Shown piece by piece: positions 24,584 to 52,596 of a stretch of 64,000 bases of DNA; the first letter of the stretch is position 1, and each line of letters opens with the position of its first letter. Position numbers and translations under genes: made by a program. A model generated the notes under the pieces. The model ran no database searches. It saw only the letters and a program-made list of their open reading frames with translations, and was not told where the DNA came from. This DNA is from a virus: IMG/VR virus record IMGVR_UViG_3300020576_007358. One strand, given 5' to 3'.

Positions 24584-25368
24584 ACGATGACATCAAGCCG
24601 ACAACGCAAGCTTCATTCGCACAGTATGGAAAGTCCTTCCAAGAAAAGCTGTGCCAAGCGCTGCTCGTTGACAAGCAGTTTGCTGAGCAGATGCTGGAGG
24701 TCTTTAACGTAACGTACCTAGAGCCAAAATACTTGGTGTTTCTTGCTGAACGTTATTTTTCGTACGCTCAGAAGTACAAGGTGTTTCCAACGATGCAGTT
24801 GCTCATCACGATCATCAGAGACGAGCTAAAGATTGGAACTGACGTTGTCATCAGAGATCAGATAGTAGATTACTTGCAACGCATGCGCTCTAATCCTGAC
24901 GTTGGAGATCTTCAGTACGTCAAGGAAAAGGCGCTAGATTTCTGCAGGAAGCAAGCGTTGCGCAGCGCTCTTGAAGAAGCGGTTGATCAGATACAGGCAG
25001 AGAAGTATGAATCGATCGTTGAAGGCATCAAGAAAGCAGTGATGGTCGGAACTGCTCCGCAGTTGGGTCATGACTTCTTTGCCGATTACGAGAGTCGCTT
25101 CACCAAGCTGTCGAGGAATGCAATTGCTACAGGTCTTCCAGAGCTAGATAAGAAAGACATCTTGAACGGTGGGTTGGGATCAGGTGAGCTAGGTTGCGTT
25201 GTTGGTGCGACTGGAACAGGAAAGTGTGTACATCGTGATACTTACATTCAGGTAAAATATACTGGAGTGAGAATTGATGGAAAACTATACAAGCCTTGGG
25301 ATCGAATTGCAACAAGGCGTGGAATCATCTTTGCTAGAGACGTCGTCGAATCAGATGAACTTGAGTGA
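24580..25368 (+). CDS. DnaB/gp41-like replicative helicase N-terminal piece, ending in P-loop GATGTGK, followed by an intein N-half (CVHRDTYIQ..., 47 aa) and a stop.
   Basis: Walker A is interrupted exactly at the GK|S position by Cys+1, the classic DnaB P-loop intein site. Confidence 0.6.
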   Translation: MNDDIKPTTQASFAQYGKSFQEKLCQALLVDKQFAEQMLEVFNVTYLEPKYLVFLAERYFSYAQKYKVFPTMQLLITIIRDELKIGTDVVIRDQIVDYLQRMRSNPDVGDLQYVKEKALDFCRKQALRSALEEAVDQIQAEKYESIVEGIKKAVMVGTAPQLGHDFFADYESRFTKLSRNAIATGLPELDKKDILNGGLGSGELGCVVGATGTGKCVHRDTYIQVKYTGVRIDGKLYKPWDRIATRRGIIFARDVVESDELE

Positions 25369-26458
25369 TAAATTCAAGTGTCAATATTGTTGTCAGCAAT
25401 ACAACAATCAATCTGGGTTGATCACGCATATTCGACGCAAGCATTCAACAACATTCACAGATTACAAGTTGAAATTTTCTCATCTTTACAAAGTTGAAAA
25501 AAGAGAAAAAAAACTTAGTCTAAATGAACTAGCTAGACGTAAACGTGATGAAAAAGCTATTGATGATGGACTTCAAGTTTTGAAGTGTGAAATTTGCAAT
25601 TATGAATCTTACTACAGTTTGATATCGCACATCGTAAGAAAACACGGTGTGGCTATGAATGAATATCGATCAAATTTCCCTTCAGCAGTTGTACAGCAAG
25701 TTACATCAGATGTCAGAGAAAAAAATAGAAAGAATGCAACGTTGCATCTTTCAGATCCTATCAAGAAAGCGAATTTTCTAAAACGAAGATCTTTTCCTTC
25801 TGAGATGAAACACTGGATCAATAAGGGATTTTCATCAGACGAAGCAAAGAAAAAAGTTGCTGAATTTCAACAAGCGATTGCGCTTAAAGGTAATAATGAA
25901 AAAACGAAGGCAAAACAGTCAATTAGAAATTCTGGTCAAAATAACCCAATGTCATTGACATCAATTTCGAAACGTCTTAACGTTTCGAAGGATGACGCAA
26001 GCAAATTGACACCGTGTTATGGAAGATCAGGCATCAAACATCCGATGTTTGGTAAAAAACACAGTATTGAAGCTTTGAACAAAATTGGTCAACACATTAA
26101 TCACACCGGACGTTCGAAAATCGAACACGAAATGTCTGATCTGATCATTTCATTGTATGGTGGTCTAAAGAACGTAGGAGTAAATGGTTGGTGCTGTGAT
26201 TACGTTAATCACGATCGTCAGATTATAGTTGAATTTTTTGGTGATTATTGGCATCACAATCCGGAAAAATATGATAGAAATTTTGTCAACAACTTTACTA
26301 AACGTTCATCTGAAGAAGTTTGGTTGCGTGATGCACGCAAATTGAATGAACTTAGAGAGAGCGGCTTTAACGTTGTTGTGATATGGGAATCTGATTGGCG
26401 AAACAAAAAAGAAGACAGTTTGAACAGGATAAAAGATGCTTTCAATAGAACATTGTGA
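25355..26458 (+). CDS. Free-standing homing endonuclease (C2H2 zinc fingers, Vsr-like core EFFGDYWH...VVIWESDW) between the helicase pieces.
   Basis: ORF 25274..26458. ATG 25355 (MNLSDKFKCQYC) overlaps the intein-N stop. Confidence 0.55.
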   Translation: MNLSDKFKCQYCCQQYNNQSGLITHIRRKHSTTFTDYKLKFSHLYKVEKREKKLSLNELARRKRDEKAIDDGLQVLKCEICNYESYYSLISHIVRKHGVAMNEYRSNFPSAVVQQVTSDVREKNRKNATLHLSDPIKKANFLKRRSFPSEMKHWINKGFSSDEAKKKVAEFQQAIALKGNNEKTKAKQSIRNSGQNNPMSLTSISKRLNVSKDDASKLTPCYGRSGIKHPMFGKKHSIEALNKIGQHINHTGRSKIEHEMSDLIISLYGGLKNVGVNGWCCDYVNHDRQIIVEFFGDYWHHNPEKYDRNFVNNFTKRSSEEVWLRDARKLNELRESGFNVVVIWESDWRNKKEDSLNRIKDAFNRTL

Positions 26459-27677
26459 AGTTGTTGAAGTTGTTAAAGTTGGTGATCTGTTTGCTAGCAT
26501 TGGATTTAATGATGATTCAGTTGCTGATGATTCTGGTGATTCATTTATTCCGAATGAATGGTCAATAGAAGTCAGATCACTTGACACTTTCTATCCTGTA
26601 GATGGTTTTCGTTGGACAAAACCAGAGCAGCAGGTGAAATTGACATATGGCAAAGAATCTTCTTTGCAGTGTTCACCAGAACACATTGTTTTGAAGTATT
26701 CTTCTACAGAAACTCAATGGACAAAAGTTAGTGATCTATCGCCTGGTGATGACATTGTCACTGTTAATGGCATATGCATGATTGATTCGATTGATAATCT
26801 AGAGGAACTTGATCGTCTTTGCGACCTTCAAGTATCAATTGCACATTCTTACTATGCTGACGGTGTGTTGTCACATAATTCTCACTTTCTTACGTTCTTG
26901 GGTGCAATGGCGCTGAGGAACAACGTTGATGTTCTTCACTACACGTTTGAGCTATCAGAGACTCAAGTTGGTATCAGGTATGATTCTAACTTGTGTGACA
27001 TTGATTCGAATGCTGTCATTGACAGCAAGGATCGTATTCTTACTAAGTACGCAGAGCAAAAGCTGGGACGCTTGATCATCAAGTACTTTCCGACGAACAC
27101 AGCTAGCATCTACACGCTTCGAAGTCACATCGAGCGCCTCGGAACGAAGGGTTTCAGGCCAGGATTGATTATCATCGACTATGCTGACATCATGAGATCA
27201 ACTCGTCAGTTCGATTCTTTGAGACACGAGCTTAAGCTCGTTTACGAAGAACTAAGAGGAATGGCTGGTGAGCTAGGAATCCCAGTGTGGACAGCGAGCC
27301 AGAGCAACAAAGAGGGAGCGACAAGCGAGATCATCGACATGGGAAACATGTCTGAAGCTTACGGCAAAGCGATGATCGCTGACGTGATCGTCAGCATCTC
27401 TAGGCGTGCTCACGAGAAGTCAACGGGTCAAGGTCGATTGTACGTTGCAAAGAATCGCGCCGGGCGCGATGGTCTTGTTTATCCGTTGCACATTGACACC
27501 TCAAAGAGCAACTTTGAGATCTTGGGTGGACCGGGTTCTTTGGACGTCGCCATGAAGGAGAACGAATCTGACATCAAGAAAGTTCTTCGTTCAAAGTGGA
27601 ACGAGATGAGAAATGATCCAATCATCGGCGAAAATCTAAAAAGAGGAAGCGATTCTAGCGATGACACGGGTTCTTGA
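26436..27677 (+). CDS. Intein C-part (about 148 aa with blocks B, F, G; ...VLSHN) fused to the helicase C-terminal piece (SHFLTFLGAMAL...).
   Basis: HN|S junction at 26880. Helicase motifs follow downstream (IIDYADIM, SQSNKEG, RAGRDG). Confidence 0.6.
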   Translation: MLSIEHCEVVEVVKVGDLFASIGFNDDSVADDSGDSFIPNEWSIEVRSLDTFYPVDGFRWTKPEQQVKLTYGKESSLQCSPEHIVLKYSSTETQWTKVSDLSPGDDIVTVNGICMIDSIDNLEELDRLCDLQVSIAHSYYADGVLSHNSHFLTFLGAMALRNNVDVLHYTFELSETQVGIRYDSNLCDIDSNAVIDSKDRILTKYAEQKLGRLIIKYFPTNTASIYTLRSHIERLGTKGFRPGLIIIDYADIMRSTRQFDSLRHELKLVYEELRGMAGELGIPVWTASQSNKEGATSEIIDMGNMSEAYGKAMIADVIVSISRRAHEKSTGQGRLYVAKNRAGRDGLVYPLHIDTSKSNFEILGGPGSLDVAMKENESDIKKVLRSKWNEMRNDPIIGENLKRGSDSSDDTGS

Positions 27678-33349: not shown

Positions 33350-34525
33350 ATGGCGCGTATACTACGAACATATCAATTTAATTGCAAGCAATGCGGTAAA
33401 AAGTGTGAAAAGTCTAACCGTAGTGGAAAACAACCAAATTTTTGCGATACTTCATGTAGTCAAATTTGGTCATATGCACATGGTCGAATTAAAACTGCTT
33501 CACGTGAATTCAAAATTCACCAACATGGCGTAGAAAGAGTTCATGAACTCGAAAAATTGCAGTATTACACATTTACATGCGAATACTGCAATGCTAACGT
33601 TACAAAGCGTAAAAGATCTCCTTTGCCAAGATTTTGCAATCGAAAGTGTTCAACGCAATTTACAGCAGTTCATGGTCGTAAACCAACGATTAACGCTGTA
33701 CATCGTAAAGCTATGAGCGAAAGAGCTACGGCTAAGTTGCTAGAGCAACCAGAGAATTTGTATTCTTGGAATACAATTAAAGGATGGTACAAAGGTAACT
33801 TCTTTAGAAGTTCGTATGAATATCACTTTCTTAAGTGGCTCGAAACAAAACAAGTCAATTTGCAGACAGATTTGAAAAAAGTACCTACTATTCAATATGA
33901 GTTTGACGGTCGTGGTCACACATATATCCCAGATTTTTACGTTGAAAAATGGAGAACGTTGTTTGAAGTTAAAAGTTCTTATGCGTGTAAAAATGATCCA
34001 AAAGTTCTTGCAAAAGCTGTTGCAGCAGAAGATTTCTGTAAAGACAAGCAATTGACTTATCAAATCATAACAGAAGATACATTGCCAGAATTGAAATCAG
34101 ACATAACTTTGATTAAGCATGATAAGTGTGTATTTTTGTTGTCAACATCTAAATCGACTGATGATCGACTTGAACACATGTTCGTTGAACAAATGAAGTT
34201 CATGAAACTCCTGCGTCAGGAAAGAAATTTCCCAGAATTTCCAGTTGATGTTTCTTCAAAACCTGGTCAGAAACTTCTTAAAGAAGTTGCACATGAATGC
34301 ATGCATGAATTGTTTGAATCTGTGCATTTGCTTCGTAATTCAAAATCACACAGAATATCTGATGTGCAAGATTTTGATAAAGAGGCCTTTTTGGAAGAGT
34401 TGTCAGATACGTTGCATTATCTGATGGAATTGTTTATCTTGAGTGGTATTACTAGCAAAGATTTGTACAAAGCATATATGAAAAAAGGAACAATCAATTT
34501 TGCTAGAATATTGAGCAATTATTGA
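33350..34525 (+). CDS. Homing endonuclease-like protein: N-terminal CxxC zinc fingers, PD-(D/E)xK core (YIPDFYV...FEVK), and a C-terminal extension whose last residues duplicate the N-terminus of the downstream Hsp20 gene.
   Basis: ORF track. Repeated AYMKKG..N..RI motif at 34480 and 34555. Confidence 0.5.
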   Translation: MARILRTYQFNCKQCGKKCEKSNRSGKQPNFCDTSCSQIWSYAHGRIKTASREFKIHQHGVERVHELEKLQYYTFTCEYCNANVTKRKRSPLPRFCNRKCSTQFTAVHGRKPTINAVHRKAMSERATAKLLEQPENLYSWNTIKGWYKGNFFRSSYEYHFLKWLETKQVNLQTDLKKVPTIQYEFDGRGHTYIPDFYVEKWRTLFEVKSSYACKNDPKVLAKAVAAEDFCKDKQLTYQIITEDTLPELKSDITLIKHDKCVFLLSTSKSTDDRLEHMFVEQMKFMKLLRQERNFPEFPVDVSSKPGQKLLKEVAHECMHELFESVHLLRNSKSHRISDVQDFDKEAFLEELSDTLHYLMELFILSGITSKDLYKAYMKKGTINFARILSNY

Positions 34526-35121
34526 TTGCATCAGGTGTAACGCTTGATGAGATGCACGAAGCGTACATGAAAAAAGGTGAAGTCAACCGAAAAAGGATCG
34601 AATCAGGGTACTTAGCCCCTGTACATTGCTTAAGGAGTGTTTTATCATGTTTTCACGAGATTGGTTCTCGTGGAAAGGAAAACACTGCTATGCTAACTCG
34701 TTACTATGATACGATGAGAAATCCAACCTACAAGTTCGGTGACTTTAACGCAATCTTTGATGACATGCTTTCAATTGATCCATTTAAGTCAGAATCTTCT
34801 ATCTGGACGAAGAAGATCATGAACAATCTACCAGAACCAACGTTTTGGCATGAGAAGACTGAAGAAGGTTCTGCTCTTCACGTTGAACTACCGGGATACA
34901 AGAAAGAAGACGTATCGATAACGCTGCAAGACAAGACTCTTGTTGTCAAGGCTGAACGTAAGATGCCCGGCGGTGCGAAGACTGTCTCGTGGAGCTGGCG
35001 CATTCAGGATACGTACGAGTCCAATCCAACGTTTGCGAAGCTAGCTGATGGCATCCTTACGATAGGATTGAAGAGTAAACAACCACCACCTGAAGAAGCA
35101 CTCAGCATAAAGATCGAGTAA
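34522..35121 (+). CDS. Small heat-shock protein, Hsp20/alpha-crystallin family.
   Basis: ACD-like core HVELPGYKKEDVSITLQDKTLVVKAERK. Confidence 0.55.
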   Translation: MIASGVTLDEMHEAYMKKGEVNRKRIESGYLAPVHCLRSVLSCFHEIGSRGKENTAMLTRYYDTMRNPTYKFGDFNAIFDDMLSIDPFKSESSIWTKKIMNNLPEPTFWHEKTEEGSALHVELPGYKKEDVSITLQDKTLVVKAERKMPGGAKTVSWSWRIQDTYESNPTFAKLADGILTIGLKSKQPPPEEALSIKIE

Positions 35122-35334: not shown

Positions 35335-36012
35335 ATGGGAAATAGATCTGATCAAGTTAAAAAGTTGTGGCAAACACCAGAATTTCGTGAAAAAATTATC
35401 GCAGCATCTAAAGACGGAAAAGCGTCGATTGAATCAAAACTTAAGCGTTCTAAAAGCTCAAGTAAATTGTGGTCTGATCCGGATTATTGTGAAAAACAAC
35501 GAATAAAACACAATGAACGAAAGAAAAGATTTGAACAAAAGCGAGTGACTATAACGTGTCTGACGTGTGGAAAAGAATGTAAGGTTAATGCAACAGTTGC
35601 AAAAACTAAGAAGTACTGTTCTCGTCGTTGCGTTATTAACAACCCAGCTTTTAACGTAAATCGAAATTTTTCCAACAGCACGTGTGTTGCTTGTCAGACA
35701 GAATTCAAACCAACTGGTGTTAAACAGTTGTGCTGCACTACATGCGTTCCAAATAATTCAGCAAAATCACGTTGGAATTCGTATAAATTGACTCAACCAA
35801 TGTACGAAATGTTGCTAAGTCAACAGGGAAATTGTTGCGCACTGTGCGAAATTTCATTCAGTAATTTGAATTCAAAAGAAATTCATGTAGATCATGATCA
35901 TACTACAAATAAAATTCGTGGCATATTGTGTATGCGGTGCAATCGTAGCTTGGGTGTGGTAGAGTATATTCCACACTTTTTGGAAAAAGTAGCAACTTAT
36001 GTCAACATTTGA
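35335..36012 (+). CDS. HNH endonuclease with NUMOD-like repeats (homing endonuclease candidate).
   Basis: CALC...HVDHDH...RGILCMRCN HNH core. Repeats KLWQTPEFREKI and KLWSDPDYCEKQ. Confidence 0.55.
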   Translation: MGNRSDQVKKLWQTPEFREKIIAASKDGKASIESKLKRSKSSSKLWSDPDYCEKQRIKHNERKKRFEQKRVTITCLTCGKECKVNATVAKTKKYCSRRCVINNPAFNVNRNFSNSTCVACQTEFKPTGVKQLCCTTCVPNNSAKSRWNSYKLTQPMYEMLLSQQGNCCALCEISFSNLNSKEIHVDHDHTTNKIRGILCMRCNRSLGVVEYIPHFLEKVATYVNI

Positions 36013-36952
36013 TATCGATACACGAACAATCATTCGTGTAATTCATGGTTCATATGCATATGGACTCAACATTGCAGGTTCAGATATCGATTACAAGGCT
36101 GTTTGTGTACCTACAAAAGAGCGGTATTTTGGATTTTTGAACAACTTTGAACAGGCTGAGATGATGGCATCAAAAACAGGTGGTGTTGACTCTGTGACCT
36201 TTGCACTTGATAAGTTCGTGCGGCTCGCTGCTGACTGCAACCCAAACATCATAGAGATCCTGTTCGTTGATGACAGCGACGTCCTCGACATCAATTCTTG
36301 GGGTGAAGAGCTCCGTGAGTTCAAAGACAATTTCATATCCAGGAAGGCGAAGCACACTTTCTCGGGCTACGCTCATTCTCAGCTTCATCGCATCAAGAAT
36401 CACCGTGCATGGTTGCTGAACCCTCCCGCGAGCGCCCCAGCACGATCCGATTTTGGGCTGTCCGACGTGTCTCGTGTTTCGAAGAGTGAGCTCGGCGCTT
36501 ACGATTCTGCGATCGAGAGCGGTATTGCTCTCGACGTGCCGAAGAGCGTCCTGACTCTGTTCACAAGGGAAAAGCAGTACGCCGCAGCAAAGACGCACTA
36601 TGACCAGTACGTTCACTGGAAGAAGTCTCGCAATCCTGCTCGAGCAGAGCTCGAAGCAAAGATTGGATATGATAGTAAACATGGCGCGCATCTCATGAGG
36701 TTGATGCGCATGTGCAAGGAGATCCTTGAGACTGGCAAGGTTAACGTGAAGCGTCGATTCGATAGAGAGGAACTTCTGGAGATTCGTAACGGTCATCGTC
36801 CCTACGATAGCCTCATCGAGGAAGCTGAGAGGCTTGAGAGCGATTGTGAAGAGCTGTACAAGACTTCTACAGTGCGCAAAGAGCCAGATCGGGAGAAGAT
36901 CAATGCATGGCTCGTGGATTTCACTGAGCGTTACCTTGCAATTCATGGCTGA
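35999..36952 (+). CDS. Pol-beta superfamily nucleotidyltransferase.
   Basis: GSYAYGLNIAGSDIDY matches the GS-x9-13-DhD signature, resembling class I CCA-adding enzymes and minimal NTases. Region has elevated GC. Confidence 0.5.
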   Translation: MSTFDIDTRTIIRVIHGSYAYGLNIAGSDIDYKAVCVPTKERYFGFLNNFEQAEMMASKTGGVDSVTFALDKFVRLAADCNPNIIEILFVDDSDVLDINSWGEELREFKDNFISRKAKHTFSGYAHSQLHRIKNHRAWLLNPPASAPARSDFGLSDVSRVSKSELGAYDSAIESGIALDVPKSVLTLFTREKQYAAAKTHYDQYVHWKKSRNPARAELEAKIGYDSKHGAHLMRLMRMCKEILETGKVNVKRRFDREELLEIRNGHRPYDSLIEEAERLESDCEELYKTSTVRKEPDREKINAWLVDFTERYLAIHG

Positions 36953-37019: not shown

Positions 37020-37895
37020 ATGGGAAAGCTCAATCAAGTCATTGCAGTTGAAAAGTCGGTGAAGAACAAGGCGCATGCTGCGATCACTGAGATCTACCAG
37101 AAGATGCAGAAGGCTCCCCTCCTGCAGGGAATTTCGCGGACGTACCGTCCGAAGGACGAGCTTGGTGAGGCTCTTCCGTCTGAGTCGTCCCGTGTTCAGC
37201 TGAATGCTACGGATTTCCTCAAGGAGCTCTCGTCGACCTTGACGGATCTCTTTGACGTCACTGCGACGAAGGATTTCGCGAACTGCGAGGCTCGCACTGA
37301 TCTTACGGTCGGTGATGTGGTTCTTGCGAAGAACGTGCCGGTTACGTACCTTCTCTTCCTCGAGAAGAAGCTGGTTGATCTGCACACGTTCGTCAGCAAG
37401 CTTCCCGTCCTTGATTCTTCGGAGGAATGGACTCTGGATCCGAACGTGAACTGCTACGCTACGAAGCCGTCCGAGACGACTCGTACGAAGAAGGTCTTTG
37501 TCCCGCTTGTCCTTGCTCCGGCGACTGACAAGCACGCAGCCCAAGTCAAGGAGGGCTACGAGGATCAGGTCGTGGGTTTCTGGAAGACTGTGAAGTTCTC
37601 TGGAGCTCTTCCGGCTCAGCGAGTTGCTGAGCTTCTGGCTCGAGTCGAGAAGCTGCAACGTGCAGTGAAGTTCGCTCGTGAGGAATGCAACGCTCGTGAG
37701 GCACCACCAGTCCAGGTTGGAGCCCGCGTTTTCGATTACCTGTTCGGTTTATCCGTAACAGGTTTGCGCAAGCTGAAAATCAGCCTTACGCTAACAGAGA
37801 GAGCTAGCAAAATTGTAGGTTCAAATCCTACCCCCTCCACTGACTCACAGTCAAGGAGTGATTCACCTCAAGTTATGCTTGGAACGAATCAATGA
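37020..37895 (+). CDS. Hypothetical protein in the GC-rich island. Its 3' tail reads through tRNA-like half alpha-3', and its stop abuts tRNA-like half alpha-5'.
   Basis: ORF track. The antisense ORF 36921..37658 is low-complexity. Confidence 0.4.
   Translation: MGKLNQVIAVEKSVKNKAHAAITEIYQKMQKAPLLQGISRTYRPKDELGEALPSESSRVQLNATDFLKELSSTLTDLFDVTATKDFANCEARTDLTVGDVVLAKNVPVTYLLFLEKKLVDLHTFVSKLPVLDSSEEWTLDPNVNCYATKPSETTRTKKVFVPLVLAPATDKHAAQVKEGYEDQVVGFWKTVKFSGALPAQRVAELLARVEKLQRAVKFAREECNAREAPPVQVGARVFDYLFGLSVTGLRKLKISLTLTERASKIVGSNPTPSTDSQSRSDSPQVMLGTNQ
37815..37839 (+). tRNA. tRNA-like 3' half 'alpha': T-arm gtagg-TTCAAAT-cctac, 3' acceptor cccctcc, discriminator a. CCA is not encoded.
   Basis: Read from sequence. 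Perfect 7/7 complementarity to GGAGGGG at 37896, which lies downstream. Confidence 0.4.
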
Positions 37896-37922
37896 GGAGG
37901 GGTGGCGGAACTGGCAGACGCA
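37896..37922 (+). tRNA. tRNA-like 5' half 'alpha': acceptor GGAGGGG, then TG, then a type-II-like D-arm GCGG-AACTGGCAGA-CGC. Followed by ACTGGTGA.
   Basis: D-arm is nearly identical to bacterial tRNA-Leu/Ser (GGCGGAAUUGGUAGACGC). Cognate 3' half is 57 nt upstream. Confidence 0.4.
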
Positions 37923-38026
37923 CTGGTGATCTCAACTCAACCTGAAGCTATCGCAACAGGTTCACTTAGTCGATAAAGGATGCAAGGATCAATCAATCGT
38001 TCACCGGCTGAATATTGCGAACTAGT

Positions 38027-38054
38027 GTGAGTTCAAATCTCACCCGCGCCTCCA
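38027..38054 (+). tRNA. tRNA-like 3' half 'beta': T-arm gtgag-TTCAAAT-ctcac, 3' acceptor ccgcgcc, discriminator t, encoded CCA.
   Basis: Perfect 7/7 complementarity to GGCGCGG at 38088, which lies downstream. Confidence 0.45.
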
Positions 38055-38087
38055 TGTTCCAACAGGAACAGCTGAAGCAGTAAATAA

Positions 38088-38130
38088 GGCGCGGTAGCTT
38101 AATGGCAGAGCGAGGTCGTCTAAGGACTGA
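38088..38130 (+). tRNA. tRNA-like 5' half 'beta': acceptor GGCGCGG, D-arm TAGCTTAATGGCAGAGC, anticodon arm ggtc-gTCTAAg-gact(g) with anticodon CUA (amber-reading). Followed by ACTGGTGAAC.
   Basis: Read from sequence. Trailer ctggtgaac pairs 9 bp with leader gttcaccgg at 37999..38007. Confidence 0.45.
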
Positions 38131-38203
38131 CTGGTGAACTTAAACGTGTGATCCCTTTCTGTAAAAAATCGACGTCAACACGATAAGTTGACTAACTCTA
38201 GAT

Positions 38204-38228
38204 GGCCCGGGTAGGATACACCCGGGCC
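38204..38228 (+). terminator. Stem-loop ggcccggg-taggataca-cccgggcc followed by gtcgctaatttt.
   Basis: Perfect 8-bp GC stem plus a T-run, downstream of the tRNA-like cluster. Confidence 0.4.
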
Positions 38229-38282
38229 GTCGCTAATTTTGGGACAGTGCACTTATTGCACTAACAGTGTTAGGATAAAAGA

Positions 38283-39263
38283 ATGAGAACCGTTTTCATC
38301 TTGCGTGGGTTGCCGGGGTGTGGAAAGTCGACTTTCGCAGCGAGCCTCGTTGCAAAGGAGCCAAAACGCTGGGTTCGCATCAATAGAGATGATCTAAGGT
38401 CTATGTCAGTGGGACCAGCAAACAACCCGCACACCGGTGACAAGACTCGTGAAGAGTTTGTTCGTGAGGCGAAGAACAACCTGCTGTCTGCTGCGTTGAA
38501 GTCCGGTTACGATGTCATCTTGGACGACACGCACCTTGTGCCGCAGACTGTGAAGAAGCTGCACACGTTCGTGGAATCGATCGGCAACGTGAAAGTCATC
38601 GAGAAGTCTTTCAACGTTGATGTAGAAGAGGCAATTGCCCGTGATGCGAAGCGCTCAGGTTTTGCTCACGTGGGTGAGAAGGTCATCCGTGACATGGCAC
38701 GTGGAGCCGGGTTGGAAGGTCGACGAAAGCTGCCTGATCGTGAAGTTTATTACCCGCCGATCGGCTGCGGCGATCCACTGACGATCAATCCAGATCTTCC
38801 AACGGCTATCATGGTTGACTTGGACGGTACGCTTGCTCTCATCGGCGATCGTTCGCCTTACGATGCGACTGATTGCGACGAAAAAGATTTGCCGAACTGG
38901 CCTGTCATCAAAACGGTCCTGGCGATGTATGCTCAAGGCGTGAAGATCATCTTCATGAGCGGCCGCGACGTGAAGTATCGTCCAGAAACTGTGAGGTTCA
39001 TCGAGAAGTACTGCCGTGAGATCGATCTGAAGCTCTGGGGGCCGGATGGCAGAGCAATCCCGTACGAGCTGCACATGCGCGGTGAACTGGATCTGACTAA
39101 AGTTGATCAGCGAAAGGACAGCATCATCAAGGAAGAACTCTTTGATGCTCATGTTCGTGGGAAGTACAACGTTCTGTTCGTTCTTGACGATCGGAATCAG
39201 GTTTGTAGAAAATGGCGTGAATTGGGTCTGACAGTTTTTCAAGTAGCAGAAGGTGATTTTTAG
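38283..39263 (+). CDS. pnk: Polynucleotide kinase-phosphatase (T4 Pnk-like; N-terminal P-loop kinase, C-terminal HAD/DxDGT 3'-phosphatase).
   Basis: GLPGCGKSTFA...RDDLR...DDTH kinase motifs. MVDLDGTL...MSGRD phosphatase motifs. Confidence 0.65.
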   Translation: MRTVFILRGLPGCGKSTFAASLVAKEPKRWVRINRDDLRSMSVGPANNPHTGDKTREEFVREAKNNLLSAALKSGYDVILDDTHLVPQTVKKLHTFVESIGNVKVIEKSFNVDVEEAIARDAKRSGFAHVGEKVIRDMARGAGLEGRRKLPDREVYYPPIGCGDPLTINPDLPTAIMVDLDGTLALIGDRSPYDATDCDEKDLPNWPVIKTVLAMYAQGVKIIFMSGRDVKYRPETVRFIEKYCREIDLKLWGPDGRAIPYELHMRGELDLTKVDQRKDSIIKEELFDAHVRGKYNVLFVLDDRNQVCRKWRELGLTVFQVAEGDF

Positions 39264-39299: not shown

Positions 39300-39557
39300 A
39301 TGAGTGCTGTGAAGCACATCATGTTCGGCCTCGCTGTGGTGGAAGACTTTCAAAAAGTCGCTGATCGATTGTACGAACTGGGTGCTGAGGCTGTAGATCA
39401 GCTCTACAGGGACACTAACTCTGTAGAGCTGGCATCTCGGTGCTACGTTCAAGTTAACGAAAGCTGCCATGATGCCATCTTGGATGAACTTAAGAGTTCA
39501 TCCAACGTTTGTGACATCATAATTCCAGCGCAGAGAGTGGTAAGAAAGAGAGCGTAA
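39300..39557 (+). CDS. Hypothetical protein.
   Basis: ORF track. Confidence 0.3.
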   Translation: MSAVKHIMFGLAVVEDFQKVADRLYELGAEAVDQLYRDTNSVELASRCYVQVNESCHDAILDELKSSSNVCDIIIPAQRVVRKRA

Positions 39558-39558
39558 C

Positions 39559-40344
39559 GTGAAAAAATACGATCGTACCCGACACATTCGAGGAAGTCGT
39601 TTCCAACACGGAGACGATGATCTTGAAGCTGTTCCGTGGGAAGATCTTGCTGGCAAGAATCTTGTCGTAGAAGAAAAAGTTGATGGTTCACAAATTGGTA
39701 TCAGCTTTGAAGATCAACGCTTGATGCTGCAATCACGAGGGCATTACCTTAGAGGTGGTCCTCGTGAGATTCAATTCAACCTTTTGAAGCAATGGGCAAC
39801 TTCAAAAACAGAAGATCTGTACTGCATTCTCGAAGATCGTTACGTTATGTTCGGTGAGTGGATGTATGCATGTCACACCATGTTTTACGATGCATTGCCT
39901 CACTATTTCATGGAGTTTGACGTGTACGATCGAGACACAAATCTCTACCTTGATACGCCGTCCAGAATGCAGCTTTTGGCACCGCTGAACTTGCAGTCTG
40001 TGTTGGTCTTGAAGAGTGGAAAGTTCTCGAAGTTGAAGGAGCTTCAGTCTCTCATCATCAGATCAAACTTCGTGACTGATCAACGTAATGAAAATTACGT
40101 GAAGTCTGCCAGGGCAGCGTACCCAGAAAAAACAGACGAAGAGATCCTAGCGAAACTTGACAAGAACGACACGATGGAGGGCCTCTACGTGAAATGGGAA
40201 GAAGGAGGTTATGTCCGTGGACGTTACAAGTTTGTTCGTGAATCATTCATCTCGTCTATTGCGGGTCAAGAAGAACATTGGCATGACAGACCAATTGTTC
40301 CGAATTGCCTGACGCCGCTAGCGTTGGAAAAAATGTTCGAATAA
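39559..40344 (+). CDS. ATP-dependent RNA ligase-like nucleotidyltransferase.
   Basis: Motif I EKVDGSQIGI (KxDG). N-terminal Y.RT.HI.GSRFQ.GDDD resembles the RNA_ligase (DraRnl-type) family. Confidence 0.45.
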   Translation: MKKYDRTRHIRGSRFQHGDDDLEAVPWEDLAGKNLVVEEKVDGSQIGISFEDQRLMLQSRGHYLRGGPREIQFNLLKQWATSKTEDLYCILEDRYVMFGEWMYACHTMFYDALPHYFMEFDVYDRDTNLYLDTPSRMQLLAPLNLQSVLVLKSGKFSKLKELQSLIIRSNFVTDQRNENYVKSARAAYPEKTDEEILAKLDKNDTMEGLYVKWEEGGYVRGRYKFVRESFISSIAGQEEHWHDRPIVPNCLTPLALEKMFE

Positions 40345-40361
40345 CGGAGTATTATTCACGC

Positions 40362-41213
40362 ATGCCAAAAATTGCATGGGCCACAGATATCCATCTTGAC
40401 ACTCTGGAGAAAACGCCAGAGAAGATCGTTCAGTTCGCAGAATCGTTGATCGTCGATCAACCAGATGCAATCGTTTTGACTGGTGATCTTTCAACGTACG
40501 CCGATCTAACGTACCACTTGTCTATCATCGAACGTGTTGTCCAGCGACCGGTTTACTTTGTCCTTGGAAATCATGATTTCTGGGGTGGCGGCGTCTCTGA
40601 TGTTCGTCTTGAGATGAAGAACCTCAGCAACATGTCGCAGTTCTTGCGATACTTGCCGAACACTCCGTACGTGACGTTGTCACCAACAACAGCTCTTGTT
40701 GGTCATGATTGTTGGTACGATGCTGGTTACGGATCACCGATGACAAGCACGATGATCATGAATGACTGGATCAGAGTGAAAGATTTTGCCGTAGAGCACT
40801 GCGTCACATACGGAGATACGTACGGTTCATATAAGACTAACAAACCTAAGGTCATCGAGATCTCGAAGAAGCTAGCGTCTGAAGGTACAGCGCACATCAT
40901 CAATGGCATCAAAGCAGCAGCAAAGTATCACAAAGTGATCATGATTGCCACACACTTTCCACCATTCCAAGAGACTCATCTCTACAATGGTAAAGTTGGC
41001 GATGCAGCTGCACAGCCATGGTACACGAACAAGATGCTCGGTGACGTGCTTCGTCAAGCAGCATCACAGCTTCCAAAGGTCAGGTTTGAGGTCTTTGCTG
41101 GTCACACTCATGGGAAGTGTGACATGCAGATCAGCGACAACTTGTTTGTTCACGTTGGCGAAGCCGAGTACAAGCAACCACGTTTGCAGAATGTCATCAC
41201 GGTGCCTTTATGA
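40362..41213 (+). CDS. Calcineurin-like metallophosphoesterase.
   Basis: D.H......GD...GNHD motifs (ATDIHLD, LTGDL, LGNHDFW). ORF 40305; ATG 40362 preferred. Confidence 0.5.
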   Translation: MPKIAWATDIHLDTLEKTPEKIVQFAESLIVDQPDAIVLTGDLSTYADLTYHLSIIERVVQRPVYFVLGNHDFWGGGVSDVRLEMKNLSNMSQFLRYLPNTPYVTLSPTTALVGHDCWYDAGYGSPMTSTMIMNDWIRVKDFAVEHCVTYGDTYGSYKTNKPKVIEISKKLASEGTAHIINGIKAAAKYHKVIMIATHFPPFQETHLYNGKVGDAAAQPWYTNKMLGDVLRQAASQLPKVRFEVFAGHTHGKCDMQISDNLFVHVGEAEYKQPRLQNVITVPL

Positions 41214-50732: not shown

Positions 50733-51620
50733 TCACCCTTTGACGGCCTCGGATACCCGAACGAACATTTCGATTTTTGTCGTGAGAATGGTCTTGATGC
50801 TCACGCAATTACTGAGCACGGTAACATGAACAGTTACGCTCATGCTCAACTCGCAGTTGAAGATTGGAATAAAGCAAACCCAAAACTTCCTTTCAAGTAC
50901 ATTCCGGGTTGTGAAATGTACTTTCACCCAAGCTTGAAGCAGTGGGAAGTTGACAAGCTTCGTGCTGAAGAAGCCCTGGTCGATAAGAAAGCAGCAGCGA
51001 AGCTCCTGAAGGAGCAGGAAAAGCTGCAGACAAAGATCATTGCTGTCGTCGATGAAGCGGATGAAACCGAAGACATCGAGATGACCAATGCTCTGACAGT
51101 TGAAAATGAAGACGAGTCAAAGTCAACGAAGCACTTCAATCCCGTCAACCGTCGTCATCACCTTGTTGTTCTGCCAAAGAACCAGCAGGGCTTGCTGTCC
51201 ATTTTCTCTGCGTGCTCGAAAGCGTACATGCAGGGTTTTTACAGATTCCCTCGCATCGACTTGGAGATGCTGAAGGAAGCAGGAAAAGATCGTAACATCG
51301 TTGTCACTTCTGCATGCATTCATCCAGATTCAATTGTGATCACCAATTGTGGTTCAATGAAGATTGTTAATCTAGTTGAACATGTAAAAAATGGCACTGA
51401 AATTTCGGTGTTGTCATATGATCATGACACAAACCAACTTGTTTTTAAGAAAGTTACTTGGGCTGATAAAACAAGAGAACAAGCAAAAATTGTTCGAATT
51501 AAGCTTAAAAATGGTGCAACATTGCGGGTAACGCCTGATCACAAAGTCTATACTAAACGTGGTTGGGTAGAAGCACAAGAACTTCTGAAAACAGATCATA
51601 TACTGTCAATCCACCAATAG
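50733..51620 (+). CDS. dnaE: DnaE (Pol III alpha) PHP-domain N-terminal piece followed by an intein N-half (CIHPDSIVIT...TPDHKVYT, starts 51315) and a stop. The upstream in-frame start region at 50619/50670..50720 is separated from it by TAG (50721) and TAA (50730).
   Basis: SPFDGLGYPNEHF...AITEHGN...GCEMY PHP motifs. Intein blocks A and B. ORF track 50826..51620. Confidence 0.55.
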   Translation, partial: SPFDGLGYPNEHFDFCRENGLDAHAITEHGNMNSYAHAQLAVEDWNKANPKLPFKYIPGCEMYFHPSLKQWEVDKLRAEEALVDKKAAAKLLKEQEKLQTKIIAVVDEADETEDIEMTNALTVENEDESKSTKHFNPVNRRHHLVVLPKNQQGLLSIFSACSKAYMQGFYRFPRIDLEMLKEAGKDRNIVVTSACIHPDSIVITNCGSMKIVNLVEHVKNGTEISVLSYDHDTNQLVFKKVTWADKTREQAKIVRIKLKNGATLRVTPDHKVYTKRGWVEAQELLKTDHILSIHQ

Positions 51621-51636
51621 TTATTGGTGGACAACT

Positions 51637-52596
51637 ATGAGAAAATTTGATTCTAAAAAGAAAGCACTAGCTCGTCAAGAATTTCTTGACTCTCTAACTC
51701 ATGTAGGTCTGACGACGGTTGAATTGAAGCGCCTGGCATCAGACCTACATTATAGTTTGTCTATGATTTATGATCTAATTGTGAGAGATCACAATGATAT
51801 TGTTACACGTTTTCGTTTTTCAAAACGATCAATTGTAAATCTGTTTCATAAACTAGGCATAGTTCATAACAATAAACTTTACTTGAGATTGCCTCAAGAA
51901 GTTAAGTTGCAGTTCAAATATCCTAAGGGAACTTCTCTTGAAGAGATAAAAAAGATCTGTTCACAACAATCTTCAAAAGGTGCTAAGACTACTCATCGTA
52001 TTAGAAAGGCATGGGATGCATACACGCCCAAAAATAATACTGAATATTATCTCAATAAAGGATATTCTCTTGACGAAGCAAATGTTAAATCGTCAGCCTT
52101 TCGAAAAAGTAAGTCTCCATTCTCAAGATCATTTTCGAACTATCAACAGCTTGCTGCTGATGACGTTCTAGAACTAATTCGTGAACTCTCAAGAAATAGA
52201 GGGCTTAAAGGGCTTGTTAGTATGCGTGCTCGCAATTCGAAACTCGAATTGCGAGTTGTATCTGAATTGCTAAACAAAGATATTCATTGTGAAACACAGA
52301 AAATTTTGGGCAAATTTGCATATGATGTTTTTGTACCAAGATTCAATCTGATCATTGAAGTAAATGGAACGTACTGGCACGCAGATCCACGCGTTTATAA
52401 CGCTGATGATCTAATTCAATTTCCGTACGGGCAAGTTAAGGCAAGTGAAAAATGGTCAAAAGATGAGATAAAGTTGGCTTATGCCAGATCAATTGGCTAT
52501 AATGTTTGTGTGTTGTGGGAAGCGGACTTGAAAAAAGAAGGTTACCTTGACGAATTCATCAAATCAATCAATGACAGCTATGCAGATGACAACTGA
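51637..52596 (+). CDS. Free-standing homing endonuclease (Vsr-like core IIEVNGTYWH...VCVLWEADL) between the dnaE pieces.
   Basis: ORF track. Confidence 0.55.
   Translation: MRKFDSKKKALARQEFLDSLTHVGLTTVELKRLASDLHYSLSMIYDLIVRDHNDIVTRFRFSKRSIVNLFHKLGIVHNNKLYLRLPQEVKLQFKYPKGTSLEEIKKICSQQSSKGAKTTHRIRKAWDAYTPKNNTEYYLNKGYSLDEANVKSSAFRKSKSPFSRSFSNYQQLAADDVLELIRELSRNRGLKGLVSMRARNSKLELRVVSELLNKDIHCETQKILGKFAYDVFVPRFNLIIEVNGTYWHADPRVYNADDLIQFPYGQVKASEKWSKDEIKLAYARSIGYNVCVLWEADLKKEGYLDEFIKSINDSYADDN

Follow-up and report, generated by a model that had tools for sequence, protein, structure and literature searches.

A DUF7873-linked locus with two tandem tRNA-mimic elements in a tailed-phage genome segment: anatomy, conservation and probable identity

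The 64,000-nucleotide (nt) stretch of viral DNA considered here (IMG/VR record IMGVR_UViG_3300020576_007358; hereafter the window, meaning the whole of this stretch) contains, just downstream of a DUF7873 gene, two elements, alpha and beta, in which the 3' half of a tRNA-like structure is encoded before its own 5' half. This arrangement raises the question of whether the two elements are circularly permuted, two-piece tRNA genes, as a first-pass annotation made from the sequence had proposed, or belong to another class of RNA. All together, the data presented below argue for the latter: the region ~37772-38231 (+) very probably is a structured non-coding RNA (ncRNA) with two tandem tRNA-mimic domains, built on the design of the bacterial RNA YrlA and having DUF7873 as partner instead of Ro60. 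The RNA is most likely co-transcribed with the upstream DUF7873 gene. A reading of the elements as split tRNA genes is not supported, the production of a decoding tRNA by circularisation or ligation not being what the anatomy encodes.

Anatomy and conservation of the two elements

In alpha, the T arm is followed by the 3' acceptor strand, a 56-nt interval, the 5' acceptor strand, U8-G9 and the D arm, while in beta the order is T arm, CCGCGCC-U-CCA, a 33-nt interval, GGCGCGG, U8-A9 and D arm. All the strings on which the first-pass annotation was built were found again in place, both acceptor pairings are 7/7, and the 3' half indeed precedes the 5' half on the same strand. CCA is not encoded after the 3' acceptor strand of alpha, which continues as ACTG. 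In addition, alpha has no sequence between the D arm and the closing strand to hold an anticodon arm. In beta, an unpaired A38024 and then two nucleotides (38025-38026) separate the inner helix from the T arm.

Relatives were sampled as 80 loci from species-representative genomes (at least 581 matched), 80 loci from IMG/VR (94 matched) and a few more found through exact protein look-up, and were scanned with a pattern consisting of a T arm, 7 nt, a gap, the complementary 7 nt, 2 nt and a D arm. Of 168 loci, 161 carry at least one such module, with the permuted order kept, in the 900 nt downstream of DUF7873, and 124 carry two; overall, the module was detected in no fewer than 581 genomes of bacterial species and in 94 viral contigs. 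The first module (median position +104 nt) has a type-II-like D arm and mostly A as discriminator. In the second, at a median of +259 nt, the D arm is of type I and the discriminator U or G. The acceptor stem sequences vary between loci with complementarity kept, and conserved stems with compensatory changes in more than 150 related loci indicate that the tRNA likeness noticed at first pass is real and under selection.

Specifically, RNAalifold analysis of 57 diverse beta units (alignment A2) returned an outer helix P0 (columns 53-58/243-248), a helix P1 (columns 66-73/216-223), the T arm, the acceptor stem and the D stem, with compensatory changes at 29 of the 30 pairs. Standard pairs fill 94.4% of the cells, compared to 59.0% after shuffling and 37-47% when the partner strand is slid; the corresponding covariation scores are 0.92, 0.25 and 0.13-0.20, and none of 500 shuffles reached the observed pairing value. 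In the alpha alignment (A3, 55 units), the T, acceptor and D helices are 99.5% paired, compared to 71.8% after shuffling, percentages that for these three helices are inflated because the loci were selected by a scan requiring those very pairings. P0 and P1, which played no part in locus selection, therefore represent independent evidence. Beta with its flanks folds with a minimum free energy of -51.7 kcal/mol (z = -3.6), and the single-stranded motifs AUCRA between P0 and P1, CUGA before the P1 3' strand and UUAAACG after it are conserved.

The pairing of the flanks was also assayed without an alignment, by comparing the duplex energy of the 5' and 3' flanks of each locus with that of the same 5' flank combined with the 3' flanks of other loci. 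For beta, using 30-nt flanks, the cognate duplex was the stronger one in 54/54 loci (mean -18.2 versus -10.2 kcal/mol); for alpha, using 70- and 80-nt flanks, this was the case in 45/54 loci. Of the 14 cases shown, 13 have the start of the inner helix 0-1 nt past the D arm and one has it 8 nt past; on the other side, 0-6 nt are left between the inner helix and the T arm, most beta units having 2-3 nt there. The inner helix thus sits at the place of the anticodon stem in a tRNA, and is followed by an internal loop and then by P1. In alpha, RNAalifold and a column-pair scan recovered the T, acceptor and D helices and no others, the CUGA/UCAG-repeat flanks being unalignable; since these flanks cannot be brought into one register, it is the comparison of cognate and cross-locus duplexes that argues for the alpha outer-helix pairing.

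Covariance models built with the window left out gave a further line of support. Model R1 (36 beta units with acceptor loops of at most 16 nt) matched the window over its full length at 37984-38156 (89.7 bits, E 3.3e-21), the sole notable difference being a 32-nt insertion in the acceptor loop, and model R2 (45 alpha units with short loops) matched 37772-37962 (87.7 bits, E 5e-18) with a 53-nt insertion. As in the other members of the family, the window elements directly follow the 3' end of DUF7873 on its strand, in the order alpha, beta, hairpin. R1 matched over its full length, with at least 60 bits, 79/80 of the genome loci and 72/80 of the viral ones (training sequences of the model make up 36 of the R1-positive loci), in all cases on the DUF7873 strand and just 3' of the gene.

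The insertions bear directly on the idea of two half-genes that need joining. Across the loci, the interval between the acceptor strands is most often 6-8 nt, discriminator included, with a long tail to which the window belongs (57 and 37 nt); the family consensus of the acceptor loop is ~4-8 nt in alpha and ~5 nt in beta. The 56- and 33-nt spacers of the window are therefore lineage-specific expansions, the acceptor stem of most members is a plain hairpin, and the RNA of most homologues runs continuously through it, which removes the need for joining. The leader-trailer helix proposed for beta (GTTCACCGG, 37999-38007, with CTGGTGAAC, 38131-38139) was reproduced by folding and covaries, and folding also returned the hairpin in the beta spacer. 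The "anticodon arm" assigned to beta (aggtc-gtctaag-gact) is, by contrast, not the conserved fold. As for the trailer ACTGGTGA, said to follow both 5' halves, it is shared by them in the window, while in relatives the motif is not conserved and its positions belong to covarying helix strands. A role of ACTGGTGA as a processing signal was rejected, as the relatives hold different, covarying sequences there.

Two features of the flanks deserve mention in their own right. The alpha 5' flank (37772-37796) consists of CUGA/CUNA repeats with a 6-nt period and the 3' flank (37934-37962) of UCAG-type repeats around a conserved UAUnGC (alignments A3 and A5); these repeats have the look of an extended, imperfect helix or of an array of repeated protein-binding sites. 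Downstream of beta, the hairpin at 38201-38231 is likely the 3' end of the RNA unit. A GGAUAC-type loop is conserved in this terminal hairpin across loci, its variants (UAGGAUAC, GGAUA or GGCUA) being kept from phages to Streptomyces, in L001-L004 and most other loci. The loop of a plain intrinsic terminator is not usually conserved in this way, which suggests contact with a protein or an RNA at this site.

The tRNA-like ends were counted in 83 non-redundant loci. NCCA, expected by chance at ~1/64, follows the 3' acceptor strand in 24/49 phage alpha and 24/49 phage beta units, and in 6/34 bacterial alpha and 3/34 bacterial beta units. A U at position -1 of the 5' strand is found in 26/49 and 34/49 phage alpha and beta units, respectively, and in 8/34 bacterial units of each type. 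The first base of the 5' strand is G in 80/98 phage units and in 34/34 bacterial alpha units, while 22/34 bacterial beta units have T; the bacterial acceptor loops mostly read N-C-U-N. RNase P prefers U(-1)/G(+1), a 7-bp stem and an intact elbow, and the sequence prerequisites for RNase P-, TruB- and DusA-type enzymes are visible (7-bp stem, T-loop UUCRA, D-loop GG). On the strength of the RNase P-type ends and of the Mycobacterium smegmatis precedent described below, opening of the hairpin is plausible in phage versions with unpaired loops, such as beta here, and a two-piece end state for window-type elements would be plausible as well.

Alpha has a more specific likeness. Compared with 431 tRNAs called by ARAGORN in the fetched loci, none of which overlaps an alpha module, its 8-26 region reached a mean best score of 0.77 to tRNA-Leu and at most 0.50 to every other type, and its discriminator is A in 74/83 loci. 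The bacterial leucyl-tRNA synthetase (LeuRS) reads A73 and the tertiary core, not the anticodon. Judging from these sequence features, leucylation of an opened alpha would be conceivable.

Table 1. Coordinates of the RNA elements and of the neighbouring genes in the window
Feature	Coordinates	Strand	Basis
RlaP nucleotidyltransferase (PF10127)	35999..36952	+	Pfam; synteny in contigs L166/L167
DUF7873 (PF25283) gene, conserved 243-codon part	37020..37748	+	Pfam E 1.6e-102, profile positions 1-242 of 244
Alpha 5' flank, periodic CUGA-type repeats and closing-helix 5' strands	37772..37808	+	R2 alignment, duplex prediction, consensus
Alpha closing 5' strands GAGA and GCUAG	37797-37800; 37803-37807	+	duplex prediction
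Alpha T arm GTAGG-TTCAAAT-CCTAC	37815..37831	+	sequence; covariation, 99.6% paired
Alpha acceptor 3' strand CCCCTCC (37832-37838) and discriminator-like A37839	37832..37839	+	sequence
Alpha acceptor loop, 56 nt	37840..37895	+	R2: 53-nt insertion versus 4 in the model
Alpha acceptor 5' strand GGAGGGG	37896..37902	+	7/7 pairing; all 7 pairs with compensatory changes, 55 sequences
Alpha U8-G9 and D arm, tRNA-Leu-like (TG, then GCG-GAACTGGCAGA-CGC at 37905-37921; 3-bp stem, 11-nt loop)	37903..37921	+	closest to authentic tRNA-Leu among 431 tRNAs
Alpha closing 3' strands, anticodon-stem equivalent (CUGGU with 37803-37807, UCUC with 37797-37800; overall 37797-37807 with 37923-37933)	37923..37933	+	duplex prediction; cognate beat cross-locus in 45/54
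Motif AACCUG-AAGCUAUCGCAA-CAGGUU in the alpha 3' flank, between alpha and beta	37939..37962	+	conserved; consensus UCAGAUUAUnGCUCCAG
Beta outer helix P0 5' strand GGAUCA, then conserved single-stranded AUCAA	37986..37996	+	P0 6/6 pairs covary
Beta helix P1 5' strand GUUCACCGG (the "leader" of the first-pass annotation)	37999..38007	+	P1 8/8 pairs covary
Beta inner helix 5' strand GCGA.CU, anticodon-stem equivalent	38017..38023	+	pairs with 38113-38119; cognate beat cross-locus in 54/54
Beta T arm GTGAG-TTCAAAT-CTCAC	38027..38043	+	sequence; covariation; R1
Beta acceptor 3' strand CCGCGCC (38044-38050), discriminator-like U (T38051), encoded CCA (38052-38054)	38044..38054	+	
Beta acceptor loop, 33 nt with small hairpins	38055..38087	+	R1: 32-nt insertion versus 5 in the model; fold
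Beta acceptor 5' strand GGCGCGG	38088..38094	+	7/7 pairing; all 7 pairs with compensatory changes, 57 sequences
Beta U8-A9 and D arm (TA, then GCTT-AATGGCA-GAGC at 38097-38111; 4-bp stem, 7-nt loop with GG)	38095..38111	+	sequence; covariation
Beta 3' strands: inner helix AG.UCGU (38113-38119), internal loop with conserved CUGA (38127-38130), P1 3' strand CUGGUGAAC (38131-38139)	38113..38139	+	
Conserved UUAAACG (38140-38146) and P0 3' strand UGAUCC (38149-38154)	38140..38154	+	alignments, covariation, R1
Terminator-like hairpin, conserved loop UAGGAUAC	38201..38231	+	also in relatives; U-run after it in L002/L004
Polynucleotide kinase-phosphatase (Pnkp), AAA_33 and HAD_PNKP	38283..39263	+	domain matches
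RNA ligase, PF09414	39559..40344	+	domain matches
Calcineurin-like metallophosphoesterase	40305..41213	+	domain matches

The DUF7873 gene and its surroundings

DUF7873 is shared by all the loci described above. More than 5,000 homologues exist, and the protein is 60-77% identical among this phage, other viral contigs, Streptomyces, Deinococcus and Myxococcota (~60% between phage and Streptomyces). In bacteria, DUF7873 stands as an orphan gene among unrelated neighbours, with a gene-free gap of 470-540 nt after it, as seen in Deinococcus soli, in a Myxococcales metagenome-assembled genome (MAG) and in another MAG; in a Streptomyces locus nothing RNA-related was found nearby. Two further arrangements were observed. 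In a Ktedonobacterales MAG (L011, 6215-7043), two tandem alpha-beta pairs form four modules with two strong R1 matches, ~0.9 kb downstream of the DUF7873 gene, and a weaker R1 match lies at 636-762. In an IMG/VR contig (L124, 3200-12300), DUF7873 and the RNA module are placed within an array of at least 12 conventional tRNA genes.

Relatives of the protein are 243-244 residues long and the Pfam profile ends at residue 242. In the window, TTA (37749-37751) stands where relatives stop, and the open reading frame (ORF) extends to a TGA at 37893-37895. The read-through comprises 47-48 codons, crossing the alpha 5' flank, T arm and acceptor loop, and its TGA immediately precedes the alpha 5' acceptor strand. 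As the identical 291-residue extended protein is on record from 2 contigs, a sequencing slip is an improbable cause of the stop loss.

A structure model of DUF7873 has a mean confidence (pLDDT) of 87. A Foldseek search of this model against the PDB returned nothing at E < 0.001, the weak top rows being mostly Cas7 and ribosomal proteins with query-normalised TM-scores of at most 0.16. No match was found to PHROGs, NCBIfam or PADLOC, nor to Band_7 in Pfam or to SPFH proteins by structure. The comparison of the DUF7873 profile with PDB sequences gave a single hit, at E = 0.16 over residues 12-79, to RelA/SpoT-family chains (7ztb/9erv), which is not significant and was given no weight. RelA/SpoT-family enzymes can act on tRNA 3' ends.

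From domain scans, the 64 kb are a segment of a large tailed-phage genome in which almost every gene lies on the + strand and which encodes T4-like baseplate and tail-tube proteins, RNR, ThyX, RecA, DnaB, PolA, PolIII-alpha, inteins and homing endonucleases. Around the two RNA elements the order is RlaP, DUF7873, alpha and beta, Pnkp, a small ORF, the PF09414 RNA ligase, the metallophosphoesterase and a DNA methylase. The succession from RlaP through DUF7873, gap and Pnkp to ligase recurs in syntenic jumbo-phage-like contigs (L166/L167), and one further contig has a patatin instead. The small ORF between Pnkp and ligase (85 residues, 39300-39557) has no Pfam or PHROG match; L166/L167 carry a small ORF at the same place. 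Among the 40 ORFs of the window that were scanned against Pfam, namely every ORF of at least 250 residues on the gene-bearing strand plus shorter ones, none had a TROVE, Band-7 or RtcB domain, and TROVE was likewise absent from the called genes or scanned ORFs of seven further loci representing five distinct gene contexts. The search of INPHARED for close phage relatives gave only a 123-bp Pnk match to a Streptomyces phage.

Elsewhere in the window, selfish elements are dense (25274-27677, 35335-36012, 50826-56059 and 61767-62555). Intein-splicing domains are present in the DnaB-like helicase and in the PolIII-alpha gene, which appears split into a PHP part (50826-51620) and a remainder (52547-56059), and NUMOD3, Endonuclease VII and GIY-YIG ORFs are also found. 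In the region 33350-35121, a TnsA-like endonuclease ORF ends in a C-terminal piece of dUTPase_2 and the next ORF, with an HSP20 domain, starts with a similar peptide (…YKAYMKKG… / …HEAYMKKGE…). It looks as if a homing-endonuclease insertion had split or duplicated the end of a dUTPase gene.

Proposed mechanism and alternative explanations

Each domain forms a single continuous chain, running from a 5' closing strand through a short linker, the T arm, a capped 7-bp acceptor stem, U8-N9 and the D arm to a 3' closing strand. The closing strands pair beside the D and T arms at the anticodon-stem position, followed by a conserved internal loop and further helices (P1 and P0 in beta), giving the predicted L shape of a tRNA, with acceptor/T coaxial stack and D/T elbow, devoid of an anticodon loop. 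In this design alpha copies tRNA-Leu, with its type-II D arm and A73-like discriminator, and beta a type-I tRNA.

The anatomy, with its conservation and covariation, and the strict linkage to DUF7873 are shown by the comparisons above; the steps that follow are inferred from them and given in order of falling confidence. First, the RNA would be a stable ncRNA, and DUF7873 may bind its non-tRNA parts (the CUGA-repeat helices and the AUCRA, CUGA and UUAAACG loops), forming a ribonucleoprotein (RNP), as suggested by gene and RNA being invariably adjacent, by their common strand and by there being no other neighbour that is constant. Second, enzymes recognising tRNAs by their elbow and acceptor end could be recruited or kept occupied by the tRNA mimics. 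Third, in this phage lineage the mimics might serve the repair or protection of tRNAs as cofactor, scaffold or decoy, together with the adjacent RlaP, Pnkp, RNA ligase and phosphoesterase; analogous proposals exist for Ro60/YrlA with RtcB and for Band-7/b7a-tRNA with RtcB (bioRxiv 10.1101/312249), and background on RNA repair and on RlaP biochemistry is found in PMC7824862 and PMC12776372, respectively. Finally, in beta-like versions, in which the loop is unpaired and UCCA is encoded, RNase P might cut 5' of G38088 and exonucleases might trim the other end to CCA38054. The product, in beta and perhaps in alpha, would be a two-piece RNA held by the acceptor and closing helices, as in M. smegmatis YrlA.

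Several observations weigh against this proposal. The pairing percentages of the T, acceptor and D helices are partly circular, for the reason given above, and the outer closing helices of alpha could not be placed in a single register. The DUF7873 model has no informative structural or sequence relative and the protein bears no independent RNA-binding mark, so that the putative RNP has the gene-RNA linkage as its one line of evidence. The RNA-repair neighbourhood is found in only part of the phage clade, and since a further contig (L170) and the bacterial loci are without it, the repair role may not be general. Similarly, RNase P opening cannot be general because in several phage homologues (L108, alpha and beta; L121, beta; L158, alpha) the long loop extends the acceptor helix and buries ACCA in it.

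A live alternative to the scaffold role, though an unlikely one, is that the mimics, capped or with CCA, serve as decoys for tRNA-targeting toxins or defence effectors that read the elbow and acceptor end (nucleotidyltransferase, pyrophosphokinase or acceptor-stem nuclease toxins), with DUF7873 stabilising the RNA and no function as a repair cofactor. It would fit with the elbow and acceptor features being the most conserved ones while the anticodon loop is missing, with the enrichment of NCCA in phage versions and with a location among counter-defence-type genes in jumbo-phage-like contigs; the provision of tRNAs by phages against host attack is established (PMC7824862). However, hundreds of bacterial species have the same module on the chromosome as an orphan, a distribution left unexplained by a purely anti-defence role, and no link to a specific toxin was found through PADLOC or otherwise.

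An ambitious extension of the RNP proposal, which we consider decidedly improbable as a whole, would make DUF7873 and its dual mimic a widespread and so far unrecognised RNP class, the third beside Ro60/Y RNA and Band-7/b7a-tRNA. The phage hairpins would then be opened by RNase P and 3' trimming into two-piece RNAs with true 5'-P/NCCA-3' tRNA ends, alpha would be aminoacylatable by LeuRS, and the RNA would work with RlaP, Pnkp and ligase in sensing, templating or shielding tRNA ends during host attack on the translation apparatus.

The elements might also be bona fide YrlA/YrlB RNAs whose Ro60 (Rsr/TROVE) partner is encoded at another place in the phage or host genome, their linkage to DUF7873 being incidental. 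The domain order is the same, YrlA is the best Rfam match, YrlA and YrlB also occur in tandem and also in phages, the 64 kb visible here come from a probably much larger phage genome, and Deinococcus and actinobacteria are known to have Ro60 (PMC4201824). We nevertheless regard this as very unlikely: the scores (24-37 bits) stay below the gathering score of 69, which is reached in 0/11 loci, TROVE is absent from the 40 window ORFs and the seven further loci, the Ro-binding motif is missing in the window and infrequent in other loci (9/83 alpha, 5/83 beta), and the elements lie at most 0.3 kb from DUF7873 in ~150 loci.

That alpha and beta are true permuted or split tRNA genes is hardly credible. 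Under this hypothesis, the leader-trailer helix would juxtapose the ends, which would be cut and ligated (for example by Pnkp and RNA ligase), and the acceptor stem would be opened by RNase P and 3' trimming, yielding a decoding tRNA. The permuted order, the perfect acceptor stems, the CCA encoded in beta and the presence of Pnkp and RNA ligase genes directly downstream would all be compatible with it. No conventional tRNA model explains these bases: ARAGORN calls no tRNA or transfer-messenger RNA (tmRNA) in the 64 kb, and Rfam gives nothing at gathering threshold. When the halves were rejoined in silico over 870 (beta) and 2,436 (alpha) junction combinations, ARAGORN did call tRNAs, but the anticodon differed with every junction chosen (Pro, Phe, Ile, Ser, SeC, Asn and others), so that these calls tell nothing of an anticodon arm. 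The tRNA likeness is limited to the acceptor, D and T parts, and the family conserves no anticodon hairpin; its place is taken by flanks that pair in 54/54 loci and run into the covarying P1 and P0, and in alpha there is nothing between the D arm and the closing strand. In addition, most homologues have the closed acceptor loop of 6-8 nt, including all the bacterial ones that have no ligase or Pnkp neighbour.

Chance resemblance, decayed tRNA genes or attP-type tRNA 3' fragments, a set of readings to which we attach a negligible probability, would fit with phages often carrying tRNA 3' fragments at integration sites and with the lack of an intact tRNA in the ARAGORN output, but were rejected on comparative evidence, namely two halves both present and complementary, compensatory changes at 14/14 acceptor pairs across phyla, a position fixed relative to DUF7873 in ~150 loci and model E-values of 3e-21 and 5e-18.

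In conclusion, a structured RNA with two tRNA mimics, adjoining DUF7873, is the reading best in keeping with these data. Bacterial Y RNAs are tRNA look-alikes in protein-bound scaffolds that have been tied to Ro60; here the same design is found with a different protein, one of very strong conservation. The widespread DUF7873-linked module points to tRNA mimicry as a recurrent, modular solution, and the locus offers a second, independent system for testing the purpose of the tRNA-like domain. For annotation, it explains "half-tRNA" fragments overlooked by tRNA finders and the "empty" gap of ~0.5 kb after DUF7873 genes. As the phage copies lie among RNA-repair enzymes and often have NCCA and a U(-1)/G(+1) RNase P-type junction, the question is directly testable.

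Comparison with known systems

No paper on DUF7873 or on a tRNA-like RNA linked to it was found in the literature searched, whose coverage did not extend to the primary b7a-tRNA source, and no Rfam family covers the RNA. The closest known system is YrlA. A permissive Rfam scan of 37500-38400 gave one full-length alignment, of YrlA (RF02553) to 38001-38140 in beta. The alignment scored 26.8 bits, where gathering requires 69, and its E-value in this small search was 0.002. The T arm, acceptor-like stem and D arm of the model fall exactly on those of beta and its terminal stem falls on P1, while its 2-nt acceptor loop corresponds to 38 nt in the window. YrlA was also the only recurring sub-threshold match in other loci (36.7, 30.5 and 24.4 bits), and at gathering threshold no YrlA was found in 11 DUF7873 loci.

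YrlA is a modular RNA, the ends of which form a Ro60-binding region with the motif GNCGAAN0-1G, while its middle is a tRNA-like domain ordered V, T arm, acceptor stem-loop and D arm (Chen et al. 2014, PMC4201824; a structure is available in bioRxiv 10.1101/312249). Reports of it cover 254 bacteria and 22 phages, with a Ro60 (TROVE) gene nearby in every case, a location within 4 kb of Ro60 on the same strand having been a criterion for the candidates (PMC4201824). In M. smegmatis, the acceptor stem of YrlA measures 7 bp; RNase P cuts the RNA both in vivo and in vitro, CCA is present on it, and its two pieces (82 nt and 65 nt) both remain with Ro60 (PMC4201824). A permuted tRNA-like RNA able to become two pieces is thus of a known kind, and one known in phages; the statement in the first-pass annotation that such an order is not described there was overstated.

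The window family resembles YrlA in being a modular ncRNA whose 5' and 3' ends make a closing stem around an internal domain of T arm, acceptor-like stem-loop and D arm, with the elbow nucleotides conserved; in the tandem arrangement, known from YrlA and YrlB, of two RNAs adjoining a protein partner; in its occurrence in phages; and in often being near RNA ligases. It differs in its sub-gathering scores and in its neighbour, which is invariably DUF7873 and not Ro60/TROVE. Furthermore, GNCGAAN0-1G is absent from 37600-38260, and was found upstream of the 9 alpha and 5 beta units mentioned above; the non-tRNA motifs are instead CUGA repeats, AUCRA, CUGA and UUAAACG. Both tandem RNAs hold full T, acceptor and D mimics, alpha is specifically tRNA-Leu-like, and NCCA is genome-encoded in about half of the phage versions. 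Compared to YrlA, therefore, the design is known, whereas the partner, the motifs and the tandem pair of full mimics are new.

With b7a-tRNA, as described at second hand (bioRxiv 10.1101/312249), the window elements share the association of a predicted tRNA-like ncRNA with a non-enzymatic protein partner in RNA-repair neighbourhoods, and b7a-tRNA is proposed there to be functionally interchangeable with YrlA. According to the same text, however, b7a strongly resembles an authentic tRNA in linear order and its partner is a Band-7/SPFH protein next to RtcB, whereas here the order is permuted, the partner is DUF7873 and the ligase is of the PF09414 type, not RtcB. The window elements thus lie outside b7a as that text portrays it.

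Permuted tRNA genes likewise have the 3' half upstream of the 5' half in one transcript. They are known from Cyanidioschyzon merolae, other algae and some archaea, encode a complete cloverleaf with an anticodon arm, and give rise to decoding tRNAs through a bulge-helix-bulge junction and a splicing endonuclease and ligase, a pathway that, to our knowledge, is not known in bacteria or phages. In contrast, the window elements have no anticodon loop, and at the junction they have a long covarying helix of 8-9 bp flanked by internal loops.

Finally, two-piece tmRNA (RF04321; alpha-proteobacteria, cyanobacteria and some beta-proteobacteria) also has a permuted tRNA-like domain, the acceptor end of which is generated by processing, and two pieces kept together by base pairing. 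The window elements differ from it in that ARAGORN gives no call and Rfam 13.6 bits against a gathering score of 47, and in having neither a tag reading frame nor a pseudoknot series. The G3:U70 alanine identity pair occurs in 0-3 of the 34-49 units per class, the stems of the window being GGAGGGG and GGCGCGG, and each of the two window elements possesses a full D arm.

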